From assembly GCA_016196885.1 (NCBI GenBank), contig JACPWU010000020.1, positions 1-32,000 on the forward strand: a stretch of DNA of 32,000 bases, given 5' to 3'. Both the position numbers and the translations under genes were made by a program. The number at the start of each line of letters is the position of its first letter. The stretch's first letter is position 1. Below, one piece after another: positions 953 to 30,275 of the stretch. This DNA is from Chlamydiota bacterium. GTDB taxonomy: Bacteria > Auribacterota > JACPWU01. The notes below the pieces were generated by a model, which was given only the letters and a program-made list of their open reading frames with translations, made no database searches and had not been told where the DNA came from.

Positions 953-2353
953 TTAATACGCATTCTCTCTCGCAAAAAGGGTTCGAAAAATAATCTTGAG
1001 GTCTAAAAGAATAGACCAATTTTCCAAATAATAAAGATCATACTTAATTCTTTCAGAAATGGAAGTATTTCCTCGAAGCCCATTGACTTGAGCCCAACCT
1101 GTCATGCCGGACTTGATTTTATGACGAGACATGTACCGGGGAACACGATCCTTAAATTCATTCACAAAATGCGGCCTTTCAGGGCGAGGGCCCACGAGAC
1201 TCATCTCGCCTTTAAGCACATTCCATAATTGCGGCAATTCATCCAAATTATATTTTCTCAAAAATTTTCCAATTTTGGTTCTGCGGGGGTCTTCACGACT
1301 CGTCCACACAGGACCTGTTTTTTCTTCCGCATTTTCATGCATGGTCCTAAATTTAATCATCGTAAAAGTGCGACCATCCTCCCCCACCCTTTCCTGCTTA
1401 TAAAAAACAGGCCCTCGAGAACTTCTCTTGACGAGAATCGCCAGAAAAAGAAAGAAGGGGGAGATCAGCACAAATCCAAGGCCCGCTCCTAAAACATCCA
1501 TTGATTTTTTCAAAAAGCGATTTGTCGCTTTTTCCAAAGGAAAAGGTTTCAATCCCAAAAGCGTCACGCCATAAAAATTTTCTATCTCTACCTGACTCGT
1601 CAAAATTTCAAAGACATTGGGAATCATTCGGAAATAAATCATCTCTCTTTCACAAGCAAGAATGACTTCTACCACCTTTTTTTGCTCCAATTCCGGAACG
1701 GCGAGCACCACCTCATCTATTCTTTCCTTTGCCAACACCTCGGAAAGAACATCCAGTGTTCCCAAGAGAGGAATTTTAGAATCTAAAAAAGAAACTTTAG
1801 CAGACTCTGCCAGAACGCCTATGATTTCATAAAAATCTCTTGCCTTTTCAAGCCCTCTGACAATTTTCCCAGATAAATCATTCACCCCGATGACCAAGAC
1901 CCTTTTTTTAATTCCAAAGCGCTTATAAAGAAATTTCTGAAGCTCTCCCAAACATTTTCTCCCCAAAAGAACAGAAACGACGCATAGAAGCCAAGCCACA
2001 ACGACCAAAAGTCTTGAATAGGAAACATCGCGATAAACAAAGGTCAAAGACATCAGAACAAACATCCCAAAAGTTACAGACTTGATCATTTGAAAAGGAC
2101 GGATTCCAGAACCTAATTTTCGACGAACATACAAGCCTCTCGCTTTAAATATCCAAAGCATGACCAAAATAGCCACCGGGAAATTAGCTTGATAGGAAAG
2201 AAAAGCGGGAATCCCTCGTGTCACTTGCAGGAGCCCTGAATGAAATCGAACCCAGAAGGCAAGACAAAAAGTGAGATACAGGACAAGGGCGTCTGTTAAG
2301 AAGGAGGCAACGGTCATCCAAAAATCAATCATGCGCTGTTTTGCTTTAGGCAT
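953..2353 (-). CDS. Polyprenyl-phosphate sugar-phosphate transferase (WbaP/WcaJ-type initiating enzyme, bacterial sugar transferase family)
   Basis: 466 aa with N-terminal TM helices and a central nucleotide-binding-like domain. The C-terminal catalytic block has RPFPLEK..., KFRTM and DELPQLWNVLKGEMSLVGPRP. Confidence 0.9.
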   Translation of the reverse strand: MPKAKQRMIDFWMTVASFLTDALVLYLTFCLAFWVRFHSGLLQVTRGIPAFLSYQANFPVAILVMLWIFKARGLYVRRKLGSGIRPFQMIKSVTFGMFVLMSLTFVYRDVSYSRLLVVVAWLLCVVSVLLGRKCLGELQKFLYKRFGIKKRVLVIGVNDLSGKIVRGLEKARDFYEIIGVLAESAKVSFLDSKIPLLGTLDVLSEVLAKERIDEVVLAVPELEQKKVVEVILACEREMIYFRMIPNVFEILTSQVEIENFYGVTLLGLKPFPLEKATNRFLKKSMDVLGAGLGFVLISPFFLFLAILVKRSSRGPVFYKQERVGEDGRTFTMIKFRTMHENAEEKTGPVWTSREDPRRTKIGKFLRKYNLDELPQLWNVLKGEMSLVGPRPERPHFVNEFKDRVPRYMSRHKIKSGMTGWAQVNGLRGNTSISERIKYDLYYLENWSILLDLKIIFRTLFARENAY

Positions 2354-2362
2354 AGAGAGGAT

Positions 2363-3460
2363 TTATTCTAACAAATTTCGTTCCTTCAAGAATTTTTTAA
2401 AGTCTCTGAGAAAAACATCCTTCCCAAATCGAAGGGCATTCTGTCTGAGAATCTTTCTATCATAAGAGAAGCTTTTAAACTTTTCAAGCACTTGACTCAA
2501 ACTCTCTTTCGTCTGTTCGTCAAAAAAGAGCCCCGTCTCTCCCTCCCTTACAGTCTCAAGCGCCCCCCCTTTTCGAAATGCGATGACAGGGGTTCCGCAG
2601 GCCTGCGCCTCTAGGGGCGTAATCCCAAAGTCCTCCTCACCCGGGAAAATCAAGGCTTGGGCCTGGGCATAATATTGACGGAGCTCCTCATCCGATCGCC
2701 ATCCCAAAAATTCAATGTGATTCTTGGCCATCCTTTTGAGTCTGTCAAGTTCAGTCCCAGCCCCTATCACCTTCAGAGGGCAATTTCCTTCATTAAAAAC
2801 TTCGATGGCCAATTCTATTTTTTTATAAGGGACCAAGGCCGAGACAATTAAAAAATAATCTTGCCTCTCATCCTTTTCGCGATAACAGAATTTCTCTCCA
2901 TCTACCGGCGGGTAAATCACAACCGCTTCTCTCTTATAAAAACGCTGAATCCTCTCGGCCACATGATTTGAAATTGCAATAAAATAATTTACATTCTGAA
3001 CTGTTTTTAAATCCCAGCGCCGAAGGAGATTCATGACGAGATTTAAACCCAGACGCTTCAGTCCGTGATACGGCCCCTTGCCAAAATATTCTTCATAAAA
3101 ACCCCACAAATATCTCATCGGCGTCAAACAATACGAGACATGCCTCGCTCCTCTTGGAAGGCGAACGCCCTTGGCCGCACAATGGCTGACACTGATCACC
3201 AAAGAAGGATGACCCAAGGAAAGACTCCGAATGGCCCAAGGGAAAAGGGGCAGATAATACCTGTATTTCAAGCGCCAGGCAGGTAACTTCTGAATCCATG
3301 AAGTTCGAATCTGCGACTTTTTAATCTTTTCAGAAATTTTTTCTGGCTCACACAATAGTGTGAAGATGGGAGCCTGCGGGAAAATATCCAACAAAGATTC
3401 TAGACATTTTTCCCCTCCCCTCATTCCGTTCAACCAATCATGAACAAAGGCAACGCTCAT
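2363..3460 (-). CDS. Glycosyltransferase, GT4 (GT-B, Glycos_transf_1) family
   Basis: The probable start is the ATG at 3460 (MSVAFVHDWLNGMRGGEKC), which forms an ATGA overlap with the upstream stop. The ORF-track start at 3514 would overlap the upstream gene by 58 nt. The C-terminal half carries an EDFGITPLEA-type GT4 motif. Confidence 0.85.
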   Translation of the reverse strand: MSVAFVHDWLNGMRGGEKCLESLLDIFPQAPIFTLLCEPEKISEKIKKSQIRTSWIQKLPAWRLKYRYYLPLFPWAIRSLSLGHPSLVISVSHCAAKGVRLPRGARHVSYCLTPMRYLWGFYEEYFGKGPYHGLKRLGLNLVMNLLRRWDLKTVQNVNYFIAISNHVAERIQRFYKREAVVIYPPVDGEKFCYREKDERQDYFLIVSALVPYKKIELAIEVFNEGNCPLKVIGAGTELDRLKRMAKNHIEFLGWRSDEELRQYYAQAQALIFPGEEDFGITPLEAQACGTPVIAFRKGGALETVREGETGLFFDEQTKESLSQVLEKFKSFSYDRKILRQNALRFGKDVFLRDFKKFLKERNLLE

Positions 3461-4593
3461 TTTTTGACAAGCTCCTCGTAAGTTTTGATAAGCCCCTGAG
3501 CCGCCGTCTCCCATGAAAATTTTTTCAATTGAGCATAACCTTTTTTGATCATCTCTTTTCTCATCTCTTCATTCTTTAAAACATGCTCGAGCGTTTCCAC
3601 CCATTTTCCAGAATCTTGAGGATCTAAAAGAATTCCAGCCTCTCCTGCCACCTCCGGCAAAGAAGCCCTATTCGAAACAACTGCAGGAACACCCGCGCTA
3701 AAAGCCTCTAGCACAGGAAGACCAAAACCCTCATAAAGAGAGGGCATCACGAAGAGATCGGCCAACTGATACAATCCGACCAATTCAGCTTGAGAAAGAA
3801 AGTCTGTTAGAATCACTTTTTTCTCCAGGCCCAGTTCTTGAATCAGAGAAAAAAGCTCTGGATACCTTTCATCACAAGGACCGGCCAAAACAAGCGATGC
3901 GTGGGGCAACTTTGTCAAAAGACGATGAAAAATTTTAACCAGGCCCATTAAATTTTTATAAGGATCCTGACGCCCCACACAAAGAATCATGGGGTGCGTT
4001 AGATTCAATTTCTTCTCGACATCCGAAGAAGGCTCTGATTTTTCAAAAGAAGGGTCAATGCCAAATTTCAAAACGCTTGTTTTCTGAAGGGTGTTTGGAA
4101 AATGGCTTACAAGATCCTGATAAGAATGTTCCGAGTCTACAAAGACATGATGAACCCTTTTCACAATCCAAAACATGAGAAGGCGATAAAGCTTATAAAA
4201 CCGGCTTTTCTTGGAACGCGGAGCAAAATGAGGAAAAAGAAACGGTATCAAATCGTGAAGGGTGACCCCCAGCCGGGTGCCAAAAGTAAAAAGTGGAATC
4301 ATAAAATTTGGGGAATGAAAAATATCAATTTTGAGTTTTTTTAAATGGAGGGGTAAAAAAATTTGACTCGAGAGAGAAAAAACACCATGAGGGAAAAGAA
4401 CGAGATGAAAAAAGGGGTCCTGAAAAATTTCTAAAATCTCGCAAGTCTCTTTCATGATTTTTTTATTTGAAAAAAATAAAAAATATTCGTCGGTTTTATT
4501 TTCCTTCATCAAAAATCGAATCATATTGATCGTATATTGACCAATCCCAGAAGGCTTTTCAATGATCCACCGAGCGTCTATTGCGATCTTCAT
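3457..4593 (-). CDS. Glycosyltransferase, GT4 family
   Basis: 378 aa starting MKIAIDARW...GIGQYT, with the YEGFGLPVLEAFSAGVPAV motif. ATGA overlap at 4590-4593. Confidence 0.85.
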   Translation of the reverse strand: MKIAIDARWIIEKPSGIGQYTINMIRFLMKENKTDEYFLFFSNKKIMKETCEILEIFQDPFFHLVLFPHGVFSLSSQIFLPLHLKKLKIDIFHSPNFMIPLFTFGTRLGVTLHDLIPFLFPHFAPRSKKSRFYKLYRLLMFWIVKRVHHVFVDSEHSYQDLVSHFPNTLQKTSVLKFGIDPSFEKSEPSSDVEKKLNLTHPMILCVGRQDPYKNLMGLVKIFHRLLTKLPHASLVLAGPCDERYPELFSLIQELGLEKKVILTDFLSQAELVGLYQLADLFVMPSLYEGFGLPVLEAFSAGVPAVVSNRASLPEVAGEAGILLDPQDSGKWVETLEHVLKNEEMRKEMIKKGYAQLKKFSWETAAQGLIKTYEELVKK

Positions 4594-5690
4594 TTAAAAC
4601 AGCTCTCGTAAACTTCTAATGTTTGACGCGCAGACTTTTCCCAATCAAATTTTTTAACCTGCTCGAGACCCTTTTGAATAAAGTCTTTTCTCAAACCCTG
4701 ATCCCGAGCCATCTTTTCCAACCCCGAAGCCAATTCCTCGGTATCCTCAGGATTTTCAATCCACAAGGCCGCATCCCCTAACACCTCTGGTAAAGAGGCC
4801 TTGCGAGAAGCAATGACAGGGATGCCAGAGGCCATGGCCTCCAAAGGGGGTAGGCCGAAACCCTCATAAAAAGAGGGGTACACAAACATCATCGAACTTT
4901 GATAAAGCTGGATCAACTCATCCTCAGAGACATAATCCAAAACTTGTATCCGATCCCGATACCGATGACGCTGAAGCGCCTTAAAAAAGCCCTCGCAAAG
5001 CCACCCCCTCATGCCTGCAATGACGAGGCGATAATCTCGCAATAAAGTTTTATCTAAAAAAATTTCAAAGGCCTTTAAAAGTCCCTCCAAATTCTTCCGA
5101 GGCTCCAGGGTTCCCACAAATAAAATTTGTCTTTCAGGCGTTTTTTTGACCGACACAAAATGACTCGCCAGGCCCAGATGAATGACATGAATTCTCTTCT
5201 CGTCTATTTTAAAAAGATCTAAAAGCTCCTGCTTGGTAAAAAGTGAATCCGCAATGATTTGATCTGCCACTTCTAACGTTCTTTTAAAAGAAGTCGTTAA
5301 ATATTTCAGATTTTTAGACTCCGTATATTGAGGATATCTAAAAAAGGAAACATCGTGAAGGGTCACAACTTTTTTGCCCCTTCGAAGGGGTTGAATCACA
5401 AAATTTGGAAAATGATAAACGTCACCTTCCCCAAAGAAAAAATCATAGGGAGGCCACTGGATTTTCTTCCAAATCTGTTGAATAAAACGTCCCGGGAGAG
5501 GACAGGCCACTTTTTGGAAATTCGCTCCCAAAGAAGGAACTTTTGAACCGCGTTTCTTAAAATCAAAAAATGAAAGGCGGTAATCATTTTTCGCGTCTAC
5601 TTTTGAAAGGCCATGAATCAGCCCCCAAATGTAATAGCCGACACCCGACTTGGCCCCCAAAAGCGGTTGAACGTCAATCGTGATTTTCAT
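4590..5690 (-). CDS. Glycosyltransferase, GT4 family
   Basis: 366 aa with the [19 protein letters not shown] motif. ATGA overlap with the upstream GspM-like gene at 5687-5690. Confidence 0.85.
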
Positions 5691-17806: not shown

Positions 17807-18400
17807 ATGAGTAATAAGTGGATGATTTTGATGCTTTCGTGTTTGACCTTTATAGGTTCACAAGCCTTTGCAGAACAAAAGTTTGGCGTAGATGTTTATC
17901 CGGGCGCAACCGCGGACTCCGCGCTGACAGACCTGTCCAAAGAGAGTGCCGATAAAATGCAGGAGGGAATTCCGGAAGCCAGCCGCATCAAGTTCGAACA
18001 AGAAGTTTATGTGACTTCCGACTCATTCGATAAAGTGCTTGAATTCTATGAGAAAATCTTCGGCATGAAGGCTGCAGAGTTTGATCCTCAAAACCCATCG
18101 GCCCTCAAACCAGAAGGCTTTGCCCTCCTTCAATCGGTAGAGATGAAAGACGTCGCAACCTCTGCAAAGATTTTTAATCCTACTCTGGACGGTTCCAAAT
18201 ACGAAGGACAAGTAAAACTGGCCCTTTTCAATAAACCTGATCTACCCATGGTTCAAATTGTGGATCAAGGACTCAACTGGAAAAGCGGTGAGGTCATCAA
18301 AAAAACAGTTGTTGGAATTACCAAGCAGCCAGAGATGCCCAAGCTTCCCGAATCCGCTCCTGAAGCACCTGCTGCAGGCACCCCAACAGCATCCAAGTAA
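17807..18400 (+). CDS. Secreted protein of unknown function with Pro/Ala-rich C-terminal tail
   Basis: Signal peptide MSNKWMILMLSCLTFIGSQAFA, AGGAGG RBS upstream and a strong terminator downstream. Confidence 0.6.
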   Translation: MSNKWMILMLSCLTFIGSQAFAEQKFGVDVYPGATADSALTDLSKESADKMQEGIPEASRIKFEQEVYVTSDSFDKVLEFYEKIFGMKAAEFDPQNPSALKPEGFALLQSVEMKDVATSAKIFNPTLDGSKYEGQVKLALFNKPDLPMVQIVDQGLNWKSGEVIKKTVVGITKQPEMPKLPESAPEAPAAGTPTASK

Positions 18401-18480: not shown

Positions 18481-18629
18481 ATCTAAAATAGGCATATGCA
18501 CTTGATTCCCCTCAGATAGAAAGAATTTGTAGTCGCCCCATTTATGGGGCAGCCTTGTGCCCCTTGCATGGATTGCCCGATGAATCGGGCGACTACTAGG
18601 GGAATCAAGTGCATATGCCTAATCTAAAA
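18481..18629. mobile_element. MITE-like non-autonomous element (133 bp) with perfect 24-bp terminal inverted repeats and an 8-bp target-site duplication
   Basis: TIR-L is TAGGCATATGCACTTGATTCCCCT (18489-18512). TIR-R is its exact reverse complement (18598-18621). Flanking direct repeats ATCTAAAA lie at 18481-18488 and 18622-18629. There is no ORF inside, and the interior carries the three-way-junction core. Confidence 0.7.
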
Positions 18630-18653
18630 TATCTCGTATGATTTGGAAAAGGA

Positions 18654-18701
18654 TTTCTCAGTCGGACCCTCCGATATACATCGGAGGGTCCGACTGAGAA
18701 A
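18654..18701. repeat. Perfect 22-bp stem / 4-nt loop hairpin
   Basis: TTTCTCAGTCGGACCCTCCGAT-atac-ATCGGAGGGTCCGACTGAGAAA. It lies about 90 nt downstream of the stop of the minus-strand 18794-20608 gene and has only a weak U-tract. Confidence 0.8.
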
Positions 18702-18793
18702 TGACACGCATGATAGACTTAACATCCCAAGTCATTTCGAACGAGACCGAGGCGAGTGAGAAATCTTGCTTTCAACGGAGCCCGCTCTTGGTA

Positions 18794-20608
18794 TCACTCA
18801 GGAGCCATCACAACCGAATCGCTGTTTTTAAACTCTTTTAACACCTTTAAAGCAAAGACATGTTGAGGATTAAAGGTAAGGGCTCGTCTTAAAAGAATTT
18901 TACCCTCAGACACCTTTCCCATTCTTAAAAGAACAGAGGCCAGCTCACAAAGCCTCTCAGGGTCATAAGGATTCATCTTCACCTGAATCTGAAGATGACG
19001 ACGCGCCTCTTCTAGCCGATTCAGCCGAGCATCCACTACGCCTAAATTCCCATGGAGAGAGGCAAAAAAGGGGGCCATGCGAAGCACCTTCTCATAGGCA
19101 TTTCGGGCCTCTTCATTCCTCTTTAAAAAACCATAGAGATAAGCCATTCGATATTGTGCCTCTAAATGCTGAGGATAAACCTCAAGTGCCTTCTCATAAA
19201 AAAGAAGGGCCTGTTCGAAACGCCCCTCACCCTTTTCAAAAACGGCTCTTTTAAAATAACAGTCACTTAAAAAGGGTTTGATAAATCCAAAATGGAAGAA
19301 AAATACAAGAAGGGCCGCTCCCAAAATTCTCAAAAAAGGTTTTAAAATCACTTTCTTTTCATCCAAGGTTATACCTGGCGAGACAAAACCATACCCCCAG
19401 CCCAGCAGGGACCAAAAAAGATAGGCGGACGACATAAAGCGTAAGTTTACATCCAATAAATTTTCAATCCATAAATTCAAAACACCCAGGAGAACCGCAT
19501 AAACAATTGTTCGGTCATTCTTCGGCAAAAACCGCACCCGTCTAAAAACAAATCTCAGCCACGCAAAAACAAAAAAGAAGAAACTCAATACACCCATCAA
19601 CCCCGTTTCCGCGCATAATTCCAAGAGCTCGCAATGGGCATGATCTGTGCTGTCCACACTCTCGGGATAGGCGAAATATTCTGGAGGACGATAAGGGGGA
19701 TAGAAAATCATAAATTGCCCTGCCCCCCATCCCAAGACAGGACTCGACCGTATCATCCCTGCCGCCCCCTTCCAAATCATGGGACGCACATCTTCTGAAA
19801 TCTGCTTTATGAAAGAAGTTCTCGTAAACGGAATGGAAAAGAGAATCATCAGACAAGCACCATACCCTAGCCATATTCCAACACGCCTTCGAGAAAGGCC
19901 TGAGAACAAAAAAACGAGGAAAAATCCTGCCCCCGCCAAACTCAAAATGACCGCCCAAGATCTTATGAAAGAAACATTCACAACAAAAAGTAACAATGCC
20001 AAAACCCCCAGCGCCTTCCAGACCTTTCGATCCTCCCTCAATTCAAGCAGCAAGAGAGGGAGCATGGCTACAAGATAGGCTCCAAACGCATTCGGATTTC
20101 CAAAAGTAGAGATGGGCTTATTTCCGGTCCAGGGACTTAAATGAAAAAGGATTTGAACAGTCCCAATTAAAAGGACAGAGAGCAACCCGACAAGATGAAA
20201 CCTTAAGAAAACCGTTCGTGAAAAACTTTTACTTAAAAAAGCATATGCAAAAAAAAGAAAAATAACAGCCGTCAGCTCAAAAAAATAACTCCCTCCGTGA
20301 TAAAAAGTGGAACGAACCCATAAGCTCAAGAAGTTGACCCCGAGAAAAAGAGCCAAGCTGACATTCACCCAAAGGGAGGGGAATTTCCACCTCCCTAAAT
20401 TTCCCCTGGCCAGAAAGAGACCTCCGGCACAAAAGAATAGAATCCCCACTCCTAAATTTTTACCTAAAGTCGGGGTATAGGTCACTTCGCTATAGAGACA
20501 AGGGATGAGGATCCAGGAGAGAAAAAAAAGCTTCTCTATCCAAGAAAGAATCTCTGATTTTTGTTGAGTGTTTGAAATGGGGTGTTTGGTTATGTTAGAC
20601 AGATACAT
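18794..20608 (-). CDS. O-antigen ligase family (Wzy_C; WaaL/PglL/TfpO-like) polytopic membrane protein fused to C-terminal TPR repeats
   Basis: At least 10 TM helices and a large loop with the conserved-His motif DHAHCELLELCAETGLMG. The C-terminal ~170 aa is TPR-like (ALLFYEKALEVYPQH..., ARNAYEKVLRMAP...). The start is uncertain, either the ATG at 20608 or the GTG at 20629, which lies inside a repeat. Confidence 0.8.
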   Translation of the reverse strand: MYLSNITKHPISNTQQKSEILSWIEKLFFLSWILIPCLYSEVTYTPTLGKNLGVGILFFCAGGLFLARGNLGRWKFPSLWVNVSLALFLGVNFLSLWVRSTFYHGGSYFFELTAVIFLFFAYAFLSKSFSRTVFLRFHLVGLLSVLLIGTVQILFHLSPWTGNKPISTFGNPNAFGAYLVAMLPLLLLELREDRKVWKALGVLALLLFVVNVSFIRSWAVILSLAGAGFFLVFLFSGLSRRRVGIWLGYGACLMILFSIPFTRTSFIKQISEDVRPMIWKGAAGMIRSSPVLGWGAGQFMIFYPPYRPPEYFAYPESVDSTDHAHCELLELCAETGLMGVLSFFFFVFAWLRFVFRRVRFLPKNDRTIVYAVLLGVLNLWIENLLDVNLRFMSSAYLFWSLLGWGYGFVSPGITLDEKKVILKPFLRILGAALLVFFFHFGFIKPFLSDCYFKRAVFEKGEGRFEQALLFYEKALEVYPQHLEAQYRMAYLYGFLKRNEEARNAYEKVLRMAPFFASLHGNLGVVDARLNRLEEARRHLQIQVKMNPYDPERLCELASVLLRMGKVSEGKILLRRALTFNPQHVFALKVLKEFKNSDSVVMAPE

Positions 20609-20617
20609 TTTCTTATT

Positions 20618-20711
20618 GGCATATTGCACTTGATTCCCCTCGATGGCAAGAATTTCTAGCCGCCCGATTTATCGGGCAGTCCATACACGGCCCCATAAGT
20701 GGGGCGACTCC
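20618..20711. repeat. Partial copy of the MITE / three-way-junction element (one TIR plus core)
   Basis: GGCATATTGCACTTGATTCCCCT (20618-20640) matches TIR-L with a 1-nt insertion. The core hairpins CCCGA-TTTA-TCGGG and CCCCA-TAAG-TGGGG are present, the outer stem is degenerate, and no second TIR is found. Confidence 0.7.
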
Positions 20712-20714
20712 ATT

Positions 20715-20752
20715 AAAAAACAAGAGACACCACCTGGTGTCTCTTGTTTTTT
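20715..20752 (-). terminator. Rho-independent terminator after the pilin gene
   Basis: AAAAAACAAGAGACACC-acct-GGTGTCTCTTGTTTTTT gives a perfect stem. On the minus strand it is followed by a U-tract, 27 nt after the pilin stop. Confidence 0.85.
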
Positions 20753-20778
20753 AAAATCCAACTCCTGCCGAGAACAAA

Positions 20779-21276
20779 TTAACTGACCGTATTGGACGGC
20801 GCTGACGCTGCGCTATCCACGTGACCATCCACATGCAACACGTTGAAGGATCGCGGGGCGTCATGACGAGCCGTATCATCATTGGAAATGGCAGAATCTG
20901 AGTTGCTGTTTTCTGAGAGCGTATCGTCATAATTAAAGTCTGACGCACCACTCGCAGCCACACTACTAGAAGAAGGACACAAGTAAACATTCAGATCTGT
21001 CAAATAATCCGTTTGCATCAACGTCAAAGATGTTTTGCCATCAACGGTGGTATCTCCATTGTTTGGAAATTGTTCATTATAGTCAATGGAATACGTATGC
21101 AAAGCCGTACCAATTTGCTTCAAGTTGTTAATGCATTTGGTCTGAGCTGCACGACGACGTGCCTTGGCCAAAGCAGGAAGCAACATGCTGGCTAAAATTG
21201 CAATAATCGCAATGACGACCAGCAATTCAATCAAGGTAAAACCTTTTTTGCTTTTTCTTAAATATAAGAGTCGCAT
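20779..21276 (-). CDS. Prepilin-type N-terminal cleavage/methylation domain protein (pilin/pseudopilin of the H-X9-DG-like class)
   Basis: [34 protein letters not shown] at the N-terminus and NVLHVDGHV near the C-terminus. A Ser/Asp-rich middle region is present and the last residue is Ser (..APSNTVS). AAAGGAGAG RBS upstream. Confidence 0.85.
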
Positions 21277-21316: not shown

Positions 21317-21332
21317 AGCAAGTTTTATTCCA
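21317..21332 (-). promoter_or_regulatory. Sigma54 (-24/-12) promoter upstream of the pilin gene
   Basis: The minus strand reads TGGAATAAAACTTGCT, that is GG-N10-GC with TGG and TTGC cores. It lies about 40 nt upstream of the ATG at 21276, and an NtrC-family activator is encoded immediately upstream. Confidence 0.65.
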
Positions 21333-21460: not shown

Positions 21461-22840
21461 TCATTCTGCGTTTAAATCACGCCTGTCCTTAAAATACTTT
21501 AACAGATAATGCCTCAGGGCATGACGAGACAAGCCAAGGGCCTGTGCGGCAAGGCTCACGCGGTTTTGATTTTTCTCAAGGGCCCAAAGAATCATTTGCT
21601 TTTCATAATTTTCAACGGCATTCTTAAAATCTATTTTACCGTCCGTTTCCATCTTTCCCCGAGTTAAGTCTTTTGAATGAAGAATTTCCCTCGGTAAAAA
21701 TTCATTTCGAATCAAATTTCCCTTTTCAAGAATGATAGAGCGTTCAATGATATTGCGCAATTCCCGAACATTGCCCGGCCAATCGTACTCAGTCAAAACT
21801 TTCAAAGCCTCAGGATGGACCCCTTGGATGTCTTTTCCATAGAGCACATTAAAATGACGAATAAAATGGCCGATGAGTTTGGAAATATCGCTGATTCTCT
21901 CCCGCAAAGGCGGGATTGCTAGCGTCATCACATTGAGCCTAAAATATAAGTCTTCTCTAAACGATCCCTCTTGAATCGCTTTTTTCAAATCCTGATGGGT
22001 CGCTGCAATAATCCTCACCCGTGTTTGAATGAAATCTGTCCCTCCCACTCTTTGAAACTTACCATCTTCCAACACTCTCAAAATTTTGGCCTGCAAGGCC
22101 AAGGGCATGTCTGCGATCTCATCCAAGTAAAGGGTTCCTCCCTCTGCGATTTCAAACTTACCTTTTTTGGTATAAAGCGCCCCCGTAAAGGAACCTTTCT
22201 CATGCCCAAAAAGCTCGCTTTCAAGAAGAGCCTCTGGAATGGCTGCGCAATTGACCGGGATAAACATTTTATCATGGCACAGACTCAGCTCATGAATGGC
22301 TTTGGCTACCAATTCTTTACCCGTCCCACTTTCTCCGTGAATGAGAACCGTCGCCTGCGTGGGGGCCACGGTTTGAATCATCTGACGAATCGCCGCCATG
22401 AGAGAATCATCGCCGATGATCTCATTTAAGGCCTTTTGGCCCTGGAGCGTTTCTTTGAGCTCCCGATTCTCCTTTTGAATGGAGCAAAATTCCAAGGCCC
22501 GCCTGACAGAAAAAATAATCTCATCCGGATCAAAAGGTTTTGAAACATAATCAAAGGCTCCGGCCTTAATGGCCTCCACTGCAGACTTAGGAGTTGCATA
22601 AGCCGTAATCATAATGACGGGAAGAGCTTTTTTTTTCTTCACGGCTTGGAGAAGATCTAATCCACTCATCTCGGACATTTTCATGTCCGTGATCATCAAA
22701 TCAAAGGGACTCTCCTCCATTTTCTGAAGCGCTATTTCAGCACTGTTCGCAAGAACCACCCGAAAACCCTCCTCACGAAAAATGGCCTCCAAGGAGATCA
22801 ACATATTTTTCTCATCATCCACAATCAAAAGAGACGGCAT
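21461..22840 (-). CDS. Sigma54-dependent response regulator (NtrC/PilR family: REC + AAA+ + Fis-type HTH)
   Basis: REC domain (LIVDDE...DLMITDMKM), Walker A GESGTGKE, ESELFGHEKGSFTGA (GAFTGA-type loop) and the C-terminal HTH LAAQALGLSRHALRHYL. Confidence 0.9.
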   Translation of the reverse strand: MPSLLIVDDEKNMLISLEAIFREEGFRVVLANSAEIALQKMEESPFDLMITDMKMSEMSGLDLLQAVKKKKALPVIMITAYATPKSAVEAIKAGAFDYVSKPFDPDEIIFSVRRALEFCSIQKENRELKETLQGQKALNEIIGDDSLMAAIRQMIQTVAPTQATVLIHGESGTGKELVAKAIHELSLCHDKMFIPVNCAAIPEALLESELFGHEKGSFTGALYTKKGKFEIAEGGTLYLDEIADMPLALQAKILRVLEDGKFQRVGGTDFIQTRVRIIAATHQDLKKAIQEGSFREDLYFRLNVMTLAIPPLRERISDISKLIGHFIRHFNVLYGKDIQGVHPEALKVLTEYDWPGNVRELRNIIERSIILEKGNLIRNEFLPREILHSKDLTRGKMETDGKIDFKNAVENYEKQMILWALEKNQNRVSLAAQALGLSRHALRHYLLKYFKDRRDLNAE

Positions 22841-22894: not shown

Positions 22895-24172
22895 TCATTC
22901 CACAATGGTTCTGATCGGCAATTTCAGCACAAAGGTACTTCCCTCGCCCTTCCTGCTTTCTACCTCAATAGAACCATCATAAGTTTGAAGTAAATTTTTG
23001 ACAATAGACAAACCCAATCCTGTTCCCTTTTCCTTGGTGGTAAAAAAGGGATTGTAAATTTTGTTCATTGCACTCTCATCCATTCCGATCCCGGTGTCTG
23101 AGATGGAAATATTCAAAACATCCTCGTCGCTCCAATAAGTCATCAGGGTGATGACCCCTTCAGGCCCCTTTGCTAAAATGGCCTCCGCTGCATTGATGAC
23201 CAAGTTCTGAAGGATTTGACGCAAATGCCCTTCGTCAAAAAAAATCAAAGGGATGTCCTTACGAAACTTTTTTCTGATCTCCAGCTTCGGATAAGCTGCT
23301 TCAAAATGAATTTCCTCAATGACATCCGTTAACACTTGATTGACATTCAATTTGGCCAATTTTACATTAGATAGTTTCGCATAGTCCATGATCTGATTCA
23401 AAATTTTATCAGACCTTTCCACTTCTTCACGAATGATATGAAGGTGTTTTTGAATTTCTACACTTTTTTCTTCAGCGTGTCGCTCTAAATAATAGGCAGC
23501 ATTATACATGATGCTCAGGGGATTTTTAAGCCCATGTGCAATTTCACCCGCGAGGCGACGAACGGCATGAATTTTTTCGCGCCTTAATTGAAGTTCTCTC
23601 TCCTCTTCCCTTTTGAGCGCCCTTTGTTGAATCAGGGCATAAATTCCCCAGCAGCAAATCGAAACCAAAACAAGAACCACAATCCTCAAGTAAAAGACTT
23701 CCCGAAAAAAAAGATCTGATTCCCTTTCTGCCAAATAAACAACGCCCCCATAAAAAAAACAAAAGGCCAAGTTGATGATTCCCTGTTCAGAAATCTTAGG
23801 AAAATTAACGGCATTGCGAATCATCAGACCCGAATACATCCAATAGAGCGGACTTTCGAGCCCTCCGGTCATGGGAATCAAGAAGCTCAAATAAAGATTG
23901 TCAATGATGGAGAGAAAAAAGGCTGAGATGCGGATTGAAAGACTGGCTTTCTCTCTCCTCTGAGCCCACGTGAGGATGATAAAAAAAATCACATTTGCCG
24001 TAATATAGAGGGCCGTCTGATAATACAAAAATCTCCTGGAAAGAATATGAAATTCGGCAGAGGGCACCCAAAAGAAAAGAAAGGAAAACAAGAGAAAGGC
24101 TGCCTTCACAGGCATCATGATCATTTTTTCTACAATCAAAATGCGACGGAGATGACGGTTCTTAATGTCCAT
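22895..24172 (-). CDS. Sensor histidine kinase with polytopic (about 6 TM) N-terminal domain (PilS-like architecture)
   Basis: H-box EIAHGLKNPLS, N-box NLVINAAEA and G-boxes DTGIGM / GTGLGLSIV. The N-terminal ~190 aa is hydrophobic. Confidence 0.85.
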   Translation of the reverse strand: MDIKNRHLRRILIVEKMIMMPVKAAFLLFSFLFFWVPSAEFHILSRRFLYYQTALYITANVIFFIILTWAQRREKASLSIRISAFFLSIIDNLYLSFLIPMTGGLESPLYWMYSGLMIRNAVNFPKISEQGIINLAFCFFYGGVVYLAERESDLFFREVFYLRIVVLVLVSICCWGIYALIQQRALKREEERELQLRREKIHAVRRLAGEIAHGLKNPLSIMYNAAYYLERHAEEKSVEIQKHLHIIREEVERSDKILNQIMDYAKLSNVKLAKLNVNQVLTDVIEEIHFEAAYPKLEIRKKFRKDIPLIFFDEGHLRQILQNLVINAAEAILAKGPEGVITLMTYWSDEDVLNISISDTGIGMDESAMNKIYNPFFTTKEKGTGLGLSIVKNLLQTYDGSIEVESRKGEGSTFVLKLPIRTIVE

Positions 24173-24821
24173 AAAGTTTAACCGCTTTTTGAATAAGCTC
24201 TCGCGCCAATTTTCTCTTTGTCCAAATTTTAAAATCCGGATGAGAAATGCGGGCTTGATCTGGGGTCAAGAATGCAAATTCTATTTTATCTGATTCAAAG
24301 CCGCATGCTTGATGACCTACACGATTGGCTACGATCATGTCCAAATTTTTGGAAAGCATTTTTTTTCTTGCATTTTCAAGGAGATGATCCGTTTCCGCAG
24401 CAAAACCGATCAGACGCTGATTCTTTTTATGGGCACCTGCCCAGGCTAAAATATCCGGATTTGGAATCAGTGCGAGGGTTTGAGGTGATTTCTTTTTCTT
24501 AAGCTTATGCCTGCTTAAATTTCCAGGGCGATAATCAGAAACGGCTGCCGTCATGATGAGAACATCACAAGTATGAAAATATTTTTTGACAGTCTGAAAC
24601 ATCTCTCGAGCAGAAATGACGTGAACCATTTTGATCGGCAAGGGAGTCAAACTGACAGGACCACTGATGAGCGTGACAGAACAACCCTGCTTGCAGGCCT
24701 CATCTGCAATGCAATATCCCATTTTGCCACTGGAGGGATTGCTTAAAAAACGCGTAGGATCTAAAAATTCTCGGGTGGGGCCGGCGGTTACTAAAATTCT
24801 AGGAAGAAATTTTACGGGCAT
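24162..24821 (-). CDS. coaB: Phosphopantothenate--cysteine ligase (CoaB), stand-alone
   Basis: ILVTAGPTREFLDPTRFLSNPSSGKMGY and AAVSDYRP motifs. The probable start is the ATG at 24821. The track start at 24842 lies inside a tandem repeat. Confidence 0.85.
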   Translation of the reverse strand: MPVKFLPRILVTAGPTREFLDPTRFLSNPSSGKMGYCIADEACKQGCSVTLISGPVSLTPLPIKMVHVISAREMFQTVKKYFHTCDVLIMTAAVSDYRPGNLSRHKLKKKKSPQTLALIPNPDILAWAGAHKKNQRLIGFAAETDHLLENARKKMLSKNLDMIVANRVGHQACGFESDKIEFAFLTPDQARISHPDFKIWTKRKLARELIQKAVKLYGH

Positions 24822-24828
24822 GTTATTC

Positions 24829-24907
24829 AGTCCATAGTCCATAGTCCATAGCCCACAGAAAAATAATTCTTTATAAACTATCGACCGTGGACTATCGACT
24901 ATGGACT
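24829..24907. repeat. Inverted heptamer arrays forming a ~20-bp hairpin that fills the coaC-coaB spacer
   Basis: (AGTCCAT)x3+AGCCCAC lies at 24829-24858, then a 19-nt AT-rich loop, then the complementary ..GTGGACT ATCGACT ATGGACT at 24878-24907. Of the first 20 positions, 19 pair. Confidence 0.85.
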
Positions 24908-25458
24908 TTTTTAAGACACGATTCTATTTTCTTCAAAATAGCGTCCTGCGAGGCCAATCGCCCAATCCCTTCATATCCGCAAGCCAGATACCCACTTTCA
25001 GGTTCGACAAAATGGTATCCATGAGCCTTTAATTTTTTGAGATTCTCCTGAAAGATCGTATTCATATACATTTGGTCATTCATGGCAGGGGCAAAAATCA
25101 CAGGAGAGCGTGTAGCAAGAAGGGTGGTCGAAACAATGTCATCTGCAATCCCATGGGCGACCTTTCCAATGATATTGGCTGTTGCAGGAGAGATGACGAT
25201 TAAATCCGCCCAATGCGCCACTTGAACGTGCATGATATTGTCAAATTCTTCTTCATCAAATATATTCTCAATCACCGGATGTCCGGATAAAGTTTTGAGA
25301 GTCAGAGAGGTTACAAAATGGAGGGCATTTTTTGTGACAAGGACATAAACCGAGGCCCCTTCACTCACAAGAGAGCGAATGAGTTCACAAGTTTTATAGG
25401 CAGCGATAGAGGCGCAGATCCCCACCAATATTTTTTTGTTCGAAAACTTTTTTCTCAT
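24892..25458 (-). CDS. coaC: Phosphopantothenoylcysteine decarboxylase (CoaC flavoprotein), stand-alone
   Basis: KKILVGICASIAAYK and APAMNDQMY flavoprotein motifs. The ATG at 25458 lies 2 nt after the gmk stop. Confidence 0.85.
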   Translation of the reverse strand: MRKKFSNKKILVGICASIAAYKTCELIRSLVSEGASVYVLVTKNALHFVTSLTLKTLSGHPVIENIFDEEEFDNIMHVQVAHWADLIVISPATANIIGKVAHGIADDIVSTTLLATRSPVIFAPAMNDQMYMNTIFQENLKKLKAHGYHFVEPESGYLACGYEGIGRLASQDAILKKIESCLKKVHSR

Positions 25459-25460
25459 TT

Positions 25461-26090
25461 TTACATTTCTTCCTTGATCGAATTTTCCAAAACTTTCACC
25501 CATTCCCTTTGACGTTCCAGCCGATGCCTTTCTGCTAAGATGATCGCCTGAAGGGTCAAAACAGTTGTATCAATGCGATCATTGGTTACCCCATAATCAT
25601 AACGCTGAGCCACTTGAATCTCGCGGTGAAACTCTTTCAATCTTAGGTTGATTTCCAGATCGGTGTCTGTCTTACGATGATACAACCTTCCCTTTAAAAT
25701 TTCCAAGGAAGGTGGAAGAATAAAAACAAGAACGGACTTTCGTTTAGACTGAATTTGAAGCGCCCCCTGGGTATCCACATCCAAGAGAACATCTTTCCCC
25801 TCTTTTAAAGCCTGGTCAATCGGCTCACGGGGGGTCCCATAAAAGGATTGATACACCTGGGCATACTCTAAAAAAAGATTTTTCTCTTTTCTCTTTTGAA
25901 ATTCTTCTGGAGAAATAAAAAAATAATCTTTTCCATCTATTTCTCCAGAACGAGGTTTACGGGTTGTGCAAGAAACAGAATAGAAAAGATCCGGAAGCAT
26001 TTCTAAAAGTTTTTTTCGCACGGTCGTCTTTCCTCCCCCCGAAGGAGAGGAAATGACGATTAAAAGGCCTGGTAAATGTGAATGGCTCAT
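25461..26090 (-). CDS. gmk: Guanylate kinase
   Basis: P-loop SPSGGGKTT, TTRKPRSGE and the typical ~200 aa length. Confidence 0.9.
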   Translation of the reverse strand: MSHSHLPGLLIVISSPSGGGKTTVRKKLLEMLPDLFYSVSCTTRKPRSGEIDGKDYFFISPEEFQKRKEKNLFLEYAQVYQSFYGTPREPIDQALKEGKDVLLDVDTQGALQIQSKRKSVLVFILPPSLEILKGRLYHRKTDTDLEINLRLKEFHREIQVAQRYDYGVTNDRIDTTVLTLQAIILAERHRLERQREWVKVLENSIKEEM

Positions 26091-26129
26091 AAGATTCTAC
26101 CCAAAACTCCGGCGGATCACCCCCTTAGA

Positions 26130-27008
26130 TTATTCAATATTCTGAATCTGCTCTCTGATTTTATCCAATTCATTTCGGACTTCAACTGTCAATCTGGAAA
26201 TATCCAAATCATTGGACTTCGAGGCCACGGTGGTAATCTCGCGCACCATTTCTTGCGTGAGAAAATCTAGGAGCCTCCCAATGCTTTCGTTGTTGGATTC
26301 AAACGCCTGATAAAACTGACTCACGTGGCTTCCCAGACGAACGATTTCTTCCGTGATATCCAACCGCTCCGCCATCAAGGCCACTTCTCGAATGACGCGG
26401 TCCTCATTGTCCTCTCGATCCGCCAGAAGCTCAGAGAGCTTTTTACGAACACGCGTCTCATACCGTTGAAGGGCCAGAGGAGCCAGGGCTTCAACTTCCT
26501 TGACCTTCACTTGAATTAAACTAAGTCTCTTAGAAATATCTTCCAGCAGTACCTTGCCCTCCCTTTCTCTCATTTGAGTCAACTCATGAAGAGCTGAAGT
26601 CAAAGTTTCGCAAACCCCCCTTTTAATTTCTTCTTCATTCAAAGGGGTTCTTTCAAAGGACAAAATATCCTTGTAGGAAAGAACATCTTTCAACGTAATA
26701 TCATCTTCCAAATCGAGTTCGTCACTCAAGGCCCTTAAGGCCTCTACGTATTTATGGGCCAATTCCGTATCAATCACAAATTCGACATCGTCTGGCATAA
26801 TCTGAAGATCTACATAGGCCTGAACCCGTCCCCTCTTCACATGTTTCCCAACCGTGTCCTTTAAAGACTGTTCAAAACTCGCCAATTCCTTGGGAAGATT
26901 AAGAGAAACCTCCAAGTATTTCCGATTGGTCGTTGAAAGCTCAACCACGATTTTTCCGGAGGCAAGTTGACCTTCCGCTCGCCCGTAGCCTGTCATGCTT
27001 TTGATCAT
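26130..27008 (-). CDS. yicC: YicC family protein (YicC N-terminal domain + DUF1732)
   Basis: MIKSMTGYGRA at the N-terminus and a C-terminal QEMVREITTVASKSND block. 292 aa. Confidence 0.85.
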   Translation of the reverse strand: MIKSMTGYGRAEGQLASGKIVVELSTTNRKYLEVSLNLPKELASFEQSLKDTVGKHVKRGRVQAYVDLQIMPDDVEFVIDTELAHKYVEALRALSDELDLEDDITLKDVLSYKDILSFERTPLNEEEIKRGVCETLTSALHELTQMREREGKVLLEDISKRLSLIQVKVKEVEALAPLALQRYETRVRKKLSELLADREDNEDRVIREVALMAERLDITEEIVRLGSHVSQFYQAFESNNESIGRLLDFLTQEMVREITTVASKSNDLDISRLTVEVRNELDKIREQIQNIE

Positions 27009-27018
27009 AAGTCCCTTT

Positions 27019-27612: not shown

Positions 27613-27631
27613 AAAATACCGATTAAAAATT

Positions 27632-30170: not shown

Positions 30171-30275
30171 TTTTTAAGAACCTCTCTATTACGTGGTTAT
30201 AGCAATAACCCACCTCACCCCGCTTATTTAAGGGGGGAACGGGGGATTACCTTTCTATAGCCTTCTAACCTTGCA

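Follow-up and report, generated by a model that had tools for sequence, protein, structure and literature searches.

The genes for the O-oligosaccharyltransferases (O-OTases) TfpO and PglS lie directly downstream of their cognate pilin genes, with pglS adjoining comP, and to our knowledge no O-OTases linked to pilins have been described outside Proteobacteria. A general O-OTase such as PglL usually has no such link to a pilin. Characterised WaaL ligases are proteins of about 400 aa with 12 transmembrane (TM) helices, and we know of none with a periplasmic protein-binding domain. The S-layer glycan of Paenibacillus alvei, host of the O-OTase WsfB, is Tyr-linked. All four characterised proteobacterial O-OTase families carry the Wzy_C domain, and tfpM genes likewise lie directly downstream of the cognate pilin gene, the active-site histidine of TfpM being H286 (PMC9829042). 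For PglL, the minimal motif is WPAAASAP, and a proline at +2 favours glycosylation (PMC4850263). According to a review, the S-layer O-OTase WsfB and PglL bear a C-terminal TPR motif, and Geobacillus encodes a separate TPR protein, WsaA, beside the TPR-less WsaB (PMC2943079).

We analysed a 32,000-nt stretch of contig JACPWU010000020.1 from an Auribacterota genome (the window), in which the gene after a prepilin gene encodes a 611-aa polytopic protein, here called the ligase (Table 1). An earlier interpretation made from the letters alone (the sequence-only reading) had placed the two ORFs where we find them, on what is the minus strand, and had proposed that they form a pilin O-glycosylation module. 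Our analysis suggests that the ligase is on balance probably, though far from securely, a Wzy_C/WaaL-fold protein O-OTase that modifies the upstream DUF1559-type pilin and possibly other periplasmic proteins.

Table 1. Features of the pilin/ligase locus and its surroundings, in window coordinates
Feature	Position	Strand	Basis or remark
WcaJ-type phosphoglycosyl transferase and three GT4 glycosyltransferases	953..5690	-	Pfam Bac_transf, Glycos_transf_1
Secreted protein, 197 aa, Pro/Ala/Ser/Thr-rich C-terminal tail	17807..18400	+	Travels with the ligase; possible second acceptor
Perfect 23-bp hairpin, bidirectional terminator-like	18653..18702	.	Between the convergent ligase and 197-aa genes
Wzy_C/WaaL-fold membrane enzyme with C-terminal TPR, 611 aa	18794..20629	-	Pfam Wzy_C and TPR; candidate pilin O-OTase
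TPR domain, about 4.5 repeats	18830..19264	-	Residues 456-600; Pfam TPR_1/2/8; predicted periplasmic
13th TM helix	19271..19339	-	Residues 431-453, AF2 helices; takes the C-terminal domain across the membrane
Predicted periplasmic catalytic loop	19631..19834	-	Residues 266-333; R282, GWGAGQF motif, H330/H332
REP-like double-hairpin repeat element	20630..20709	-	Between terminator and ligase start
Intrinsic terminator	20713..20754	-	Perfect 20-nt arms, A-tract and U-tract; directly past the pilin stop codon
Prepilin gene, probably DUF1559 type, 165 aa	20779..21276	-	Pfam N_methyl and SBP_bac_10; candidate glycan acceptor
Sigma-54 type -24/-12 promoter-like element TGGAATAAAACTTGC	21318..21332	-	TGG-N8-TTGC, 42 nt 5' of the pilin ATG
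Sigma-54-dependent response regulator, PilR-like position	21461..22840	-	Pfam Response_reg, Sigma54_activat (1.8e-70), HTH_8
Membrane sensor histidine kinase, PilS-like position	22895..24172	-	Pfam HisKA and HATPase_c

The pilin gene, its regulators and the gap before the ligase

The pilin has a class III signal peptide with KKG before the cleavage site, and its N-terminus is that of a type IV pilin or pseudopilin: a short basic leader, Gly at -1, Phe at +1, Glu at +5 and a hydrophobic helix. It matched N_methyl in Pfam (2.1e-10), TIGR02532 in NCBIfam (2.1e-9) and DUF1559/SBP_bac_10 (PF07596; 4.6e-9, 37.2 bits against a cut-off of 23.3), the last over profile positions 2-38 of 268 only. TIGR04294 was absent among its NCBIfam matches; close homologues carry the JGI name H-X9-DG proteins, and orthologues are numerous at 56-69% identity. 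The Ser-rich segment singled out by the sequence-only reading is present, but it corresponds to a motif conserved in the family, (S/T)E(N/F)S..DS...DD, rather than to low-complexity sequence.

The pilin tail (residues 155-165) does end in Ser, as had been noted. A TfpO-style acceptor at that residue, however, finds no backing in the family, as the last residue of the orthologous pilins is D in four, E in three and A in one. All orthologues carry a Ser/Thr/Pro-rich tail after DGH, and an S/T-x-P motif 7-9 residues past DGH recurs in Auribacterota and Verrucomicrobiia pilins. The tail of the window pilin, SAASAPS, includes AASAP, the core of the PglL motif, as a short low-complexity string.

Upstream of the pilin, the response regulator contains a GSFTGA loop, and the order kinase, regulator, pilin is repeated in four related loci (L001, L083, L087 and L089). 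Over the full window the -24/-12 pattern occurred 5 times against 4.96 expected and so was not enriched; the pilin genes of L001, L085 and L087, however, are preceded by TGGCAY-N5-TTGC elements, and near-matches occur in L083. The locus thus appears to have a PilS/PilR-sigma54 arrangement, in which a kinase and a sigma-54 activator adjoin the pilin and a predicted -24/-12 promoter precedes it.

The pilin and the ligase are separated by 150 bp on the same strand. This intergenic segment folds with z = -7.55, and terminators of differing stem sequence occupy the same position in L001, L083, L085 and L087. Because a conserved terminator separates the two genes, they are not a simple co-transcribed pair, and the ligase is probably made at a low level by read-through. 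The REP-like repeat beyond the terminator occurs in three copies in the window (8416-8456, 18531-18594 and 20658-20709; none expected by chance) and is absent from the relatives' loci. Since the first seven ligase codons, counted from the GTG start, fall within this repeat, the true start may be the ATG at 20608.

Recurrence of the pairing and its neighbours

The sequence-only reading had made conservation of the adjacency in relatives a check on its proposal, and the adjacency proved to be conserved. One or more pilin genes followed by a Wzy_C/TPR gene were found in 6/6 distinct Auribacterota-type loci (the window, L001, L083, L085/L086, L087 and L089). The pairing persists there despite different flanking genes, and it is kept where an RHH/PIN toxin-antitoxin pair (L085) or an additional ORF (L089) has been inserted. 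All eight testable Verrucomicrobiia loci have a DUF1559 pilin 0-84 bp upstream of the enzyme on the same strand, as does L033 from one further lineage; in Verrucomicrobiia the pair is flanked by PMT_2+TPR (TMTC-like) genes. When the enzymes were arranged in a neighbour-joining tree, the pilin-linked ones occupied three separate positions. This recurrence in several little-known bacterial lineages suggests glycosylation of the pilin as the most likely role of the enzyme.

Across the wider family, the upstream gene was pilin-like in 7 (automatic gene call) or 9 (regex scan) of the 67 related loci in which an upstream gene was called, and by Pfam in 10/69 loci, L001 included, against a background of 2/554 other flank ORFs (Fisher p = 3.8e-6), an excess beyond chance. 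Family members stand beside a WbaP/WcaJ-like phosphoglycosyl transferase in 15/69 loci, as do the Omnitrophota and Ratteibacteria relatives, and beside their own paralogues in 10/69. Because in most other phyla the neighbours are phosphoglycosyl transferases or paralogues and not pilins, pilin modification does not account for the family as a whole.

The secreted 197-aa protein encoded convergently with the ligase had no match in Pfam or NCBIfam. L001, L083 and L085 each encode a 58-65% identical protein, again convergent with the ligase, and the low-complexity tail varies in length among these loci. Farther away, the phosphoglycosyl transferase of the glycosyltransferase cluster scored 437 bits against TIGR03023 (WcaJ_sugtrans; cut-off 410.75), and the cluster overlaps an upstream pseudopilus operon by 4 nt. 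The sequence-only reading had cast this cluster as a plausible supplier of the donor glycan. Its composition, one phosphoglycosyl transferase plus three glycosyltransferases and no polymerase, is as described; the link to the ligase is no more than plausible, given the distance of 13 kb and the lack of a flippase within the window.

A phosphoglycosyl transferase as a frequent neighbour also raises the prospect that the ligase belongs to an exopolysaccharide pathway, as a Wzy-like polymerase or another enzyme that processes undecaprenyl-diphosphate (Und-PP)-linked glycans, with the TPR domain as a scaffold to the export machinery and the pilin unrelated. Some Wzy polymerases match Wzy_C too, the glycosyltransferase cluster lacks a polymerase, and in the 15/69 loci just mentioned the family member directly follows the transferase. 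TPR scaffolds are known in polysaccharide export, going by a reference cited in the review (PMC2943079). We nevertheless consider this assignment quite improbable: neither the surroundings of the ligase in the window nor the pilin-linked loci contain Wzx, PCP or OPX export genes, the cluster is remote, the Arg/His motif is of the ligase type and aligns with WaaL and PglL, and the recurrent pilin adjacency would be left unexplained.

The Wzy_C core and the TPR domain

Assignment of the ligase to the Wzy_C/WaaL family, with a conserved-His loop, held up. Wzy_C (PF04932) matched residues 210-351 with E 2.8e-12 and 47.1 bits, above the cut-off of 31.7. Residues R282, G300, G302 and H332 vary little or not at all within the family, H332 being the nearly invariant His in DHAHCELLELCAETG, and R282 and H332 align with the Arg/His motifs of two solved structures, WaaL 7TPG and the PglL-like OTase 9RMK. 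AF2 models had pLDDT values of 78-79 (79 for the window ligase). In Foldseek searches against the PDB, the only strong fold match of the TM core was WaaL 7TPG (E 6e-8, TM-score 0.58-0.65, 18% identity), which says little because 7TPG is the sole Wzy_C-fold structure in the library. WaaL 7TPG likewise ranked first for the family profile against the PDB (E 2.3e-18), and 9RMK was marginal (E 5.5e-3). Neither PglL_A nor Wzy_C_2 was matched in Pfam at E <= 0.01. The NCBIfam matches of the ligase included no exosortase/PEP-CTERM O-glycosylation ligase model, which we take TIGR03097 to be, and the window contains no exosortase gene. The sequence and fold criteria used here do not separate an O-OTase from WaaL.

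The ligase could accordingly be the organism's own WaaL, transferring an Und-PP-linked glycan to lipid A-core, its pilin neighbourhood reflecting shared surface regulation or inherited gene order. This would accord with 7TPG as the best profile and fold match, with Wzy_C as the O-antigen ligase family, with the phosphoglycosyl transferase beside the Omnitrophota and Ratteibacteria relatives, and with the terminator between pilin and ligase. We judge it unlikely, as the fold match to 7TPG tells little for the reason given, the window holds no waa/LPS-core genes, and 13 TM helices plus a TPR domain are unlike the characterised WaaL enzymes known to us. Pilin adjacency maintained over three deep lineages and through local rearrangements is, moreover, hard to explain for a lipid-directed enzyme.

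Residue P431, at the start of the 13th helix (TM13), is invariant. With an N-in topology the short loops contain 12 Lys and Arg residues inside and 3 outside; this positive-inside bias, combined with 13 TM helices, is predicted to place the TPR domain in the periplasm, beside the catalytic loop. The TPR fusion announced by the sequence-only reading is real, at about 150 aa and not the 170 aa suggested. Nor is it without precedent, since a C-terminal TPR motif has been reported for WsfB and PglL (PMC2943079). A search with the TM core only yielded 5483 relatives, and almost every one of the top 150 was 550-800 aa long, so the long form is a coherent family.

Among solved TPR structures, OGT and SPINDLY come closest, and the top NCBIfam matches of the TPR part were PilW (E 6e-11, 42 bits against a cut-off of 154) and Tgl (E 1e-7, 32 against 225). 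Together with the neighbouring pilin gene, the PilW and Tgl matches could point to a protein that is mainly a pilus-assembly factor, with a TPR domain like that of PilF, PilW or Tgl on a catalytically irrelevant Wzy_C anchor. Such a role is very improbable: both matches lie far under the curated cut-offs and reflect generic TPR similarity, and the near or complete invariance of the catalytic Arg, His and GxGxG even in very divergent relatives speaks for an enzyme function that has been retained.

TPR domains, that of OGT among them, typically bind a variety of extended peptides, and the ligase might be a general PglL-like O-OTase that modifies many periplasmic targets through Ala/Ser/Pro-rich disordered segments, linked to the pilin because the pilin is its most abundant substrate. 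The Pro/Ala/Ser/Thr-rich tail of the convergent secreted protein and the PglL-like motif in the pilin tail fit this picture. The tight, conserved pilin linkage seen here, not usual for general O-OTases, and the weak similarity to 9RMK speak against it, and we think it no likelier than an LPS ligase.

Proposed mechanism and place among known enzymes

Since the gene architecture is that of TfpO, TfpM and PglS, pilin O-glycosylation is the best available reading. Gene order and its conservation, the WaaL-type fold, the Arg/His site and the predicted periplasmic TPR domain lend partial support to the module as first proposed; the terminal Ser drops out of it, and the two genes are no simple co-transcribed pair. 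Under pilin O-glycosylation, the PilS/PilR-like kinase and sigma-54 activator would drive strong pilin transcription from the -24/-12 promoter, the terminator past the pilin gene would stop most transcripts, and a small amount of enzyme would be made by presumed read-through or from a weak promoter of its own. The 12-TM core would bind an Und-PP-linked glycan at the periplasmic face, and the Arg282/His332 site would transfer it en bloc onto the hydroxyl group of a serine or threonine. TM13 would set the TPR repeats in the periplasm near the active site, where they may recognise or hold the acceptor; the likeliest site would be the flexible Ser/Thr/Pro-rich tail of the membrane-anchored pilin.

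TfpO (P. aeruginosa group I, Acinetobacter) and TfpM (Moraxellaceae) share with the ligase a polytopic Wzy_C architecture, a gene that lies immediately 3' of the pilin in the same orientation, a conserved active-site His (TfpM H286, H332 here) and a regulated, highly expressed pilin (here by prediction). They differ, by their descriptions, in being about 425-460 aa long with no extra domain, whereas the ligase adds TM13 and TPRs within 611 aa. They glycosylate the very last Ser/Thr, a position held here by S, D, E or A, and they serve T4a pilins with a disulfide loop in Proteobacteria, not PVC-type DUF1559 pilins in Auribacterota and Verrucomicrobiota. PglL (Neisseria) and PglS (Acinetobacter) are of similar size (520-600 aa), have a Wzy_C core with Arg/His motifs and act on internal sequons, with acceptor sites in Ala/Ser/Pro-rich segments; the tail of the window pilin has the short AASAP string of the PglL motif. 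The marginal profile match to 9RMK, the missing PglL_A and Wzy_C_2 domains and several clear, high-scoring TPR repeats distinguish the ligase from PglL.

WsfB of P. alvei, by description, combines Wzy_C with a C-terminal TPR motif in the two-part design also seen here (PMC2943079), but it has a Gram-positive host and an S-layer protein acceptor and is not pilin-linked. WaaL of Cupriavidus metallidurans (7TPG) shares the core of 12 TM helices and the Arg/His-bearing periplasmic loop; its length of about 400 aa, the lack of TM13 and TPRs and its lipid A-core acceptor contrast with a pilin-linked ligase outside any LPS-core context. Eukaryotic OGT/SPINDLY and TMTC-type enzymes, in which a TPR array on a glycosyltransferase selects protein acceptors, offer an analogy of design only, as their catalytic folds differ and their donors are nucleotide sugars or Dol-P-Man, not Und-PP-glycans.

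As a tentative extension, Wzy_C, TM13 and a periplasmic TPR domain might define a fifth, widespread O-OTase class (PVC, Omnitrophota, Elusimicrobia and other candidate phyla) whose acceptors are TPR-selected as in OGT and TMTC, and which is dedicated in Auribacterota and Verrucomicrobiota to DUF1559 (H-X9-DG) pilins, which would then be glycoproteins.

Pilin-linked O-OTases are sought-after glycoconjugate vaccine tools, limited by their acceptor and glycan specificity. If the proposal is right, a pilin-coupled enzyme of PVC bacteria and candidate phyla with a built-in periplasmic TPR acceptor module would be a mechanistically different class, and it would work on glucose-initiated glycans should the WcaJ-type pathway nearby supply the donor. 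Few protein families in Planctomycetota, Verrucomicrobiota and their relatives are as expanded and as poorly understood as the DUF1559 prepilins, and pilin O-glycosylation, if true, would give the first functional handle on these prepilins.

Gene content and expression signals of the pilin locus

The sequence-only reading had described a pilin-type gene followed by one for an O-antigen-ligase-family/TPR protein, and this observation was correct in all essentials. The prepilin carries a class III signal peptide of textbook form (KKG↓FTLIELLVV...) and matches N_methyl (2.1e-10) and, above the cut-off, the start of DUF1559/SBP_bac_10 (4.6e-9) in Pfam; DUF1559-type pilins are hugely expanded in the PVC group. 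Pfam assigns residues 210–351 of the 611-aa enzyme to Wzy_C, with a score over the cut-off (E 2.8e-12), and residues 456–600 to several TPR families. The kinase and sigma-54 activator beside the pilin resemble the PilS/PilR/sigma-54 arrangement, which is that of major type IVa pilins (Pseudomonas, Myxococcus, Geobacter).

Coordinates of features in the window and in related loci from other genomes or samples
Feature	Positions	Strand	Description
Glycan cluster	953-5690	-	phosphoglycosyl transferase, three GT4 enzymes
T2SS-like pseudopilus operon	5687-9769	-	GspG above cut-off, two pseudopilin-like ORFs, GspK-like ORF, 436-aa and 140-aa unknowns
REP-like element copies	8416-8456, 18531-18594, 20658-20709		intergenic
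Secreted protein, 197 aa	17807-18400	+	convergent with enzyme gene
Membrane protein (enzyme), 611 aa	18794-20629	-	fourth of four genes
Hairpin	20713-20754		perfect 20-nt arms, flanking A- and U-tracts; right after pilin stop codon
Prepilin, 165 aa	20779-21276	-	third of four genes
TGG-N8-TTGC element	21318-21332		42 nt 5' of pilin start
Sigma-54-dependent response regulator	21461-22840	-	Response_reg, Sigma54_activat (1.8e-70), HTH_8; GSFTGA loop
Membrane histidine kinase	22895-24172	-	first of four minus-strand genes in order
Housekeeping block	24162-31949	-	5' of kinase: split CoaBC, Gmk, YicC, phosphoribosyltransferase, PyrF, PyrD and PyrK-like subunit, CarB fragment
L085, toxin-antitoxin pair	6747-7392	+	RHH/PIN
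L087, genes after pilin	3029-7048	+	truncated Wzy_C (305 aa), TPR protein (432 aa), full Wzy_C/TPR (596 aa)
L029, TPR membrane proteins	1158-3257, 8681-10786	-, +	700 aa

The consensus TGGCAY-N5-TTGC occurs 5' of pilin genes in three related loci (L001, L085 and L087), with near-matches in a fourth, L083. Across the whole window the sigma-54 pattern showed no enrichment; what counts is only where it lies and that relatives conserve it. The main pilin terminator was missed by the terminator scanner and was found by folding, in which the pilin–enzyme intergenic RNA gave z = -7.55, and by an inverted-repeat search; an Rfam search of the window gave no match. In L001, L083, L085 and L087 a terminator is found at the same place but with a different stem sequence, indicating that pilin and enzyme do not form a plain operon. 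Read-through past the terminator would likely provide abundant pilin and scarce enzyme. P. aeruginosa 1244 reportedly has a major pilA-only and a minor pilA-pilO transcript (work ascribed to Castric, 1995).

A REP-like double-hairpin element (AGTCGCCCCAYTTATGGGGC ... GCCCGATRAATCGGGCGRCT) is present in three intergenic copies in the window, where chance would give 0. The enzyme gene lies between two of them, which are in opposite orientation, and its annotated GTG start is covered by a longer repeat (GGGGAATCAAGTGCA.ATGCC). The element is absent from the relatives' loci, and the flanking copies were rejected as signs of a mobile cassette because relatives hold the gene at the same place without them. 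In the housekeeping block, CoaBC is present as two ORFs, DFP and Flavoprotein, and the visible part of the block (Pribosyltran/YicC through DFP) is syntenic in L001, L083 and L089.

Fold, motifs and topology of the enzyme

AlphaFold2 modelled the full enzyme, with 14 homologues in the alignment, at a mean pLDDT of 79, and residues 1–450 separately at 78. Foldseek searches with the whole model were swamped by TPR matches, so the transmembrane core was modelled and searched separately. Its only strong fold match was the O-antigen ligase WaaL of Cupriavidus metallidurans (7TPG; E 6e-8, TM-score 0.58/0.63, 18% identity), with the SEDS proteins FtsW and RodA far behind and the PglL-like oligosaccharyltransferase structure 9RMK absent from the Foldseek results. 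Against PDB sequences, phmmer returned TPR proteins only for the full enzyme and no match for the core alone; reaching WaaL and 9RMK required a 17-sequence profile of the core, which gave E 2.3e-18 for WaaL and E 5.5e-3 for 9RMK ("Oligosaccharyltransferase", 610 aa, with a PglL-like FTHSHN motif), on which a literature search found nothing relevant. Arg282 (DVRPxIW, invariant in the family), GxGxGxF and His332 (HAHxE) align with the corresponding motifs of both proteins, and by this alignment the catalytic apparatus of the superfamily of ligases and O-oligosaccharyltransferases (O-OTases) is intact in the enzyme. The rival reading that the enzyme is a WaaL draws on these profile figures, the only ones that discriminate; they lean towards WaaL but compare single structures.

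The models predict 13 transmembrane helices. If the N-terminus is taken to be cytoplasmic, the Lys and Arg residues of the short loops number 12 on the cytoplasmic and 3 on the periplasmic face. Helix 13 (residues 431–453), which follows an invariant Pro, carries the chain across the membrane, so that the TPR domain is predicted to be periplasmic, as is the catalytic loop (266–333) in the models. A search of 1.84 billion representative proteins with the core only retrieved 5483 relatives, 570 of them at E <= 1e-10, and almost all of the 150 best ones measure 550–800 aa, indicating that the core and its C-terminal extension form a coherent family rather than a sporadic fusion. Three other assignments of the enzyme were rejected: the IctB family (28.7 bits against a cut-off of 366), a PilW- or Tgl-type TPR lipoprotein (scores far below cut-offs) and an exosortase-associated ligase (no match, and a context that does not fit).

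The sequence-only reading had described the TPR fusion as not a feature of TfpO or PglL, a claim of novelty that was too strong: according to a 2010 review, the S-layer O-OTase WsfB and PglL carry a TPR motif at the C-terminus, and WsaB has a separate TPR protein encoded beside it (PMC2943079). The TPR feature is therefore not wholly new. Searches of the literature found almost nothing on either DUF1559 pilins or enzymes that combine Wzy_C with TPR.

Conservation of the pilin–enzyme adjacency

In relatives, the adjacency of pilin and enzyme genes seen in the window is conserved well beyond chance, in Auribacterota-type and Verrucomicrobiia loci and in L033, a locus from one unclassified MAG. 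The closest database relative of the enzyme (43% identity) is in L001, a contig fully syntenic with the window that has two pilin genes upstream of the enzyme gene. The pilin has many homologues at 56–69% identity, some named Chlamydiota bacterium or Candidatus Theseobacter exili (phylum Auribacterota, PVC group), and the loci of four were examined. L083 contains kinase, regulator, two pilins and Wzy_C/TPR genes, with differing downstream genes; L089 contains kinase, regulator, pilin, one inserted ORF and Wzy_C/TPR; L085/L086 contains SecA, Lnt and PrfB upstream, then three pilins, a toxin-antitoxin pair and Wzy_C/TPR, without kinase or regulator; and L087, from Candidatus Theseobacter exili, contains kinase, regulator, pilin, a short Wzy_C gene, a gene for a TPR protein and a complete Wzy_C/TPR gene. 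The toxin-antitoxin pair lies between the last pilin and the Wzy_C/TPR gene in L085 (GCA_016178055.1) and again in the second sample, L086; the short Wzy_C and TPR genes of L087 could have come from a duplicate of the fusion that split or is decaying.

When each species was represented by one genome, a scan with a 3-sequence alignment as query, the 14-sequence alignment A1 being too divergent, returned 284 relatives of the enzyme, the best 80 of which (23–32% identity) belong to Omnitrophota, Ratteibacteria, Elusimicrobia, Verrucomicrobiota and other candidate phyla. An N_methyl+DUF1559 pilin gene lies upstream on the same strand in 8/8 Verrucomicrobiia loci with upstream DNA present, and likewise in L033, its end 0–84 bp from the enzyme gene; among the remaining ORFs of the flanks, 2/554 are pilin-like (Fisher p = 3.8e-6). 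Such gaps suggest direct co-transcription in Verrucomicrobiia. Pilin-linked enzymes fall at three separate places in a neighbour-joining tree, whose deep branches are weak, indicating either an ancient pair long kept or a pair that arose more than once; either way, a functional link is implied. In Verrucomicrobiia the pair is flanked by membrane proteins of 700 aa that carry long TPR arrays (L029; L042 and L048 have similar genes). One of these proteins matches PMT_2 and so is a putative protein O-mannosyltransferase of TMTC-like type, which gives these loci several TPR-bearing GT-C-type enzymes.

TfpO and PglS genes adjoin their pilin genes, as TfpM genes do, so that three of the four recognised O-OTase families share with the window pair a pilin-then-enzyme architecture. 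All four families (PglL, PglS, TfpO and TfpM) have Wzy_C and were described from Proteobacteria, and the pilin-then-enzyme order is the basis for finding and screening TfpM–pilin pairs (PMC9829042). The window pair differs from these systems in its DUF1559 pilin family and its occurrence in other phyla, the enzyme in its 13th helix and clear predicted periplasmic TPR array, and the pilins, compared with those of TfpO and TfpM, in having no conserved terminal acceptor residue. On balance we regard, with moderate confidence, a pilin-modifying O-OTase with a TPR acceptor-binding module as the likeliest reading of the enzyme.

Candidate acceptor and donor glycan, and other contexts of the family

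TfpO and TfpM act on the C-terminal residue of pilin (PMC9829042). The window pilin has Ser as its last residue, but the C-terminal Ser acceptor suggested for it did not hold up in its orthologues, which end in D, E or A, and a strict mechanism of this type is not supported as a conserved feature by the sequences. Conserved instead is a short tail after a DGH motif, rich in Ser, Thr, Pro and Gly and probably flexible (GVRSLPSGSAG... and DSTSTNPSGPTA in Auribacterota relatives; NSLPSTCGTND... in Verrucomicrobiia), in which an S/T-x-P motif recurs 7–9 residues past DGH. Within the window tail lies AASAP, which forms the core of WPAAASAP, the minimal motif recognised by PglL, in which Pro at +2 enhances glycosylation (PMC4850263); the match is suggestive but short and of low complexity. 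The stretch past the conserved CPS motif, variable and Ser/Thr/Ala/Gly-rich in all Auribacterota orthologues, is a second candidate acceptor site. Another stretch of the Ser/Ala/Asp-rich segment earlier described as low-complexity turned out to be a conserved motif in the orthologues and is thus probably structural.

The secreted protein of 197 aa, for which neither Pfam nor NCBIfam gave a match, occurs at the same position in L001, L083 and L085 (58–65% identity). Its Pro/Ala/Ser/Thr-rich C-terminal tail (...PESAPEAPAAGTPTASK) varies in length and resembles low-complexity segments of the O-glycosylation type.

The phosphoglycosyl transferase of the glycan cluster scores above the NCBIfam cut-off for WcaJ-type undecaprenyl-phosphate glucose phosphotransferases (437 bits against 410.75). 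The cluster, 13 kb away, may supply the enzyme's glycan, in which case the enzyme must accept a glucose-initiated glycan; among known O-OTases, only PglS and TfpM do so (PMC9829042). A polymerase-like function is another rival reading of the enzyme; no polymerase or flippase was found in the window. The cluster is translationally coupled to the pseudopilus operon by 4-nt overlaps, in a run that continues through three GT4 genes, the WcaJ-type transferase and a DUF6677 protein; this physical joining of pilus-type to glycan-building genes is unusual and intriguing.

A general O-OTase is a further rival reading of the enzyme. Taken together, the family is not bound to pilins: the gene next upstream encodes a WbaP/WcaJ-type phosphoglycosyl transferase in 15/69 loci (an Omnitrophota/Ratteibacteria clade) and a Wzy_C/TPR paralogue in 10/69 (Elusimicrobia and others). 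In the Omnitrophota/Ratteibacteria clade, the Wzy_C/TPR gene lies directly 3' of a 430-aa Bac_transf phosphoglycosyl transferase (30% identity to that of the window), and the next gene after it is recJ, on the opposite strand (L005, L006, L009, L010, L013, L015, L019-L021, L024, L027, L031 and L036; about 4–7.5 kb each), a minimal two-gene module of initiating transferase and ligase. Tandem paralogues of 660–845 aa each occur in Elusimicrobia and in MAGs labelled Clostridia (L043, L044, L046, L053, L058, L062, L070, L071, L077 and L080). The transferase and paralogue contexts fit a family that uses undecaprenyl-diphosphate-linked glycans and was recruited to pilins in some lineages.
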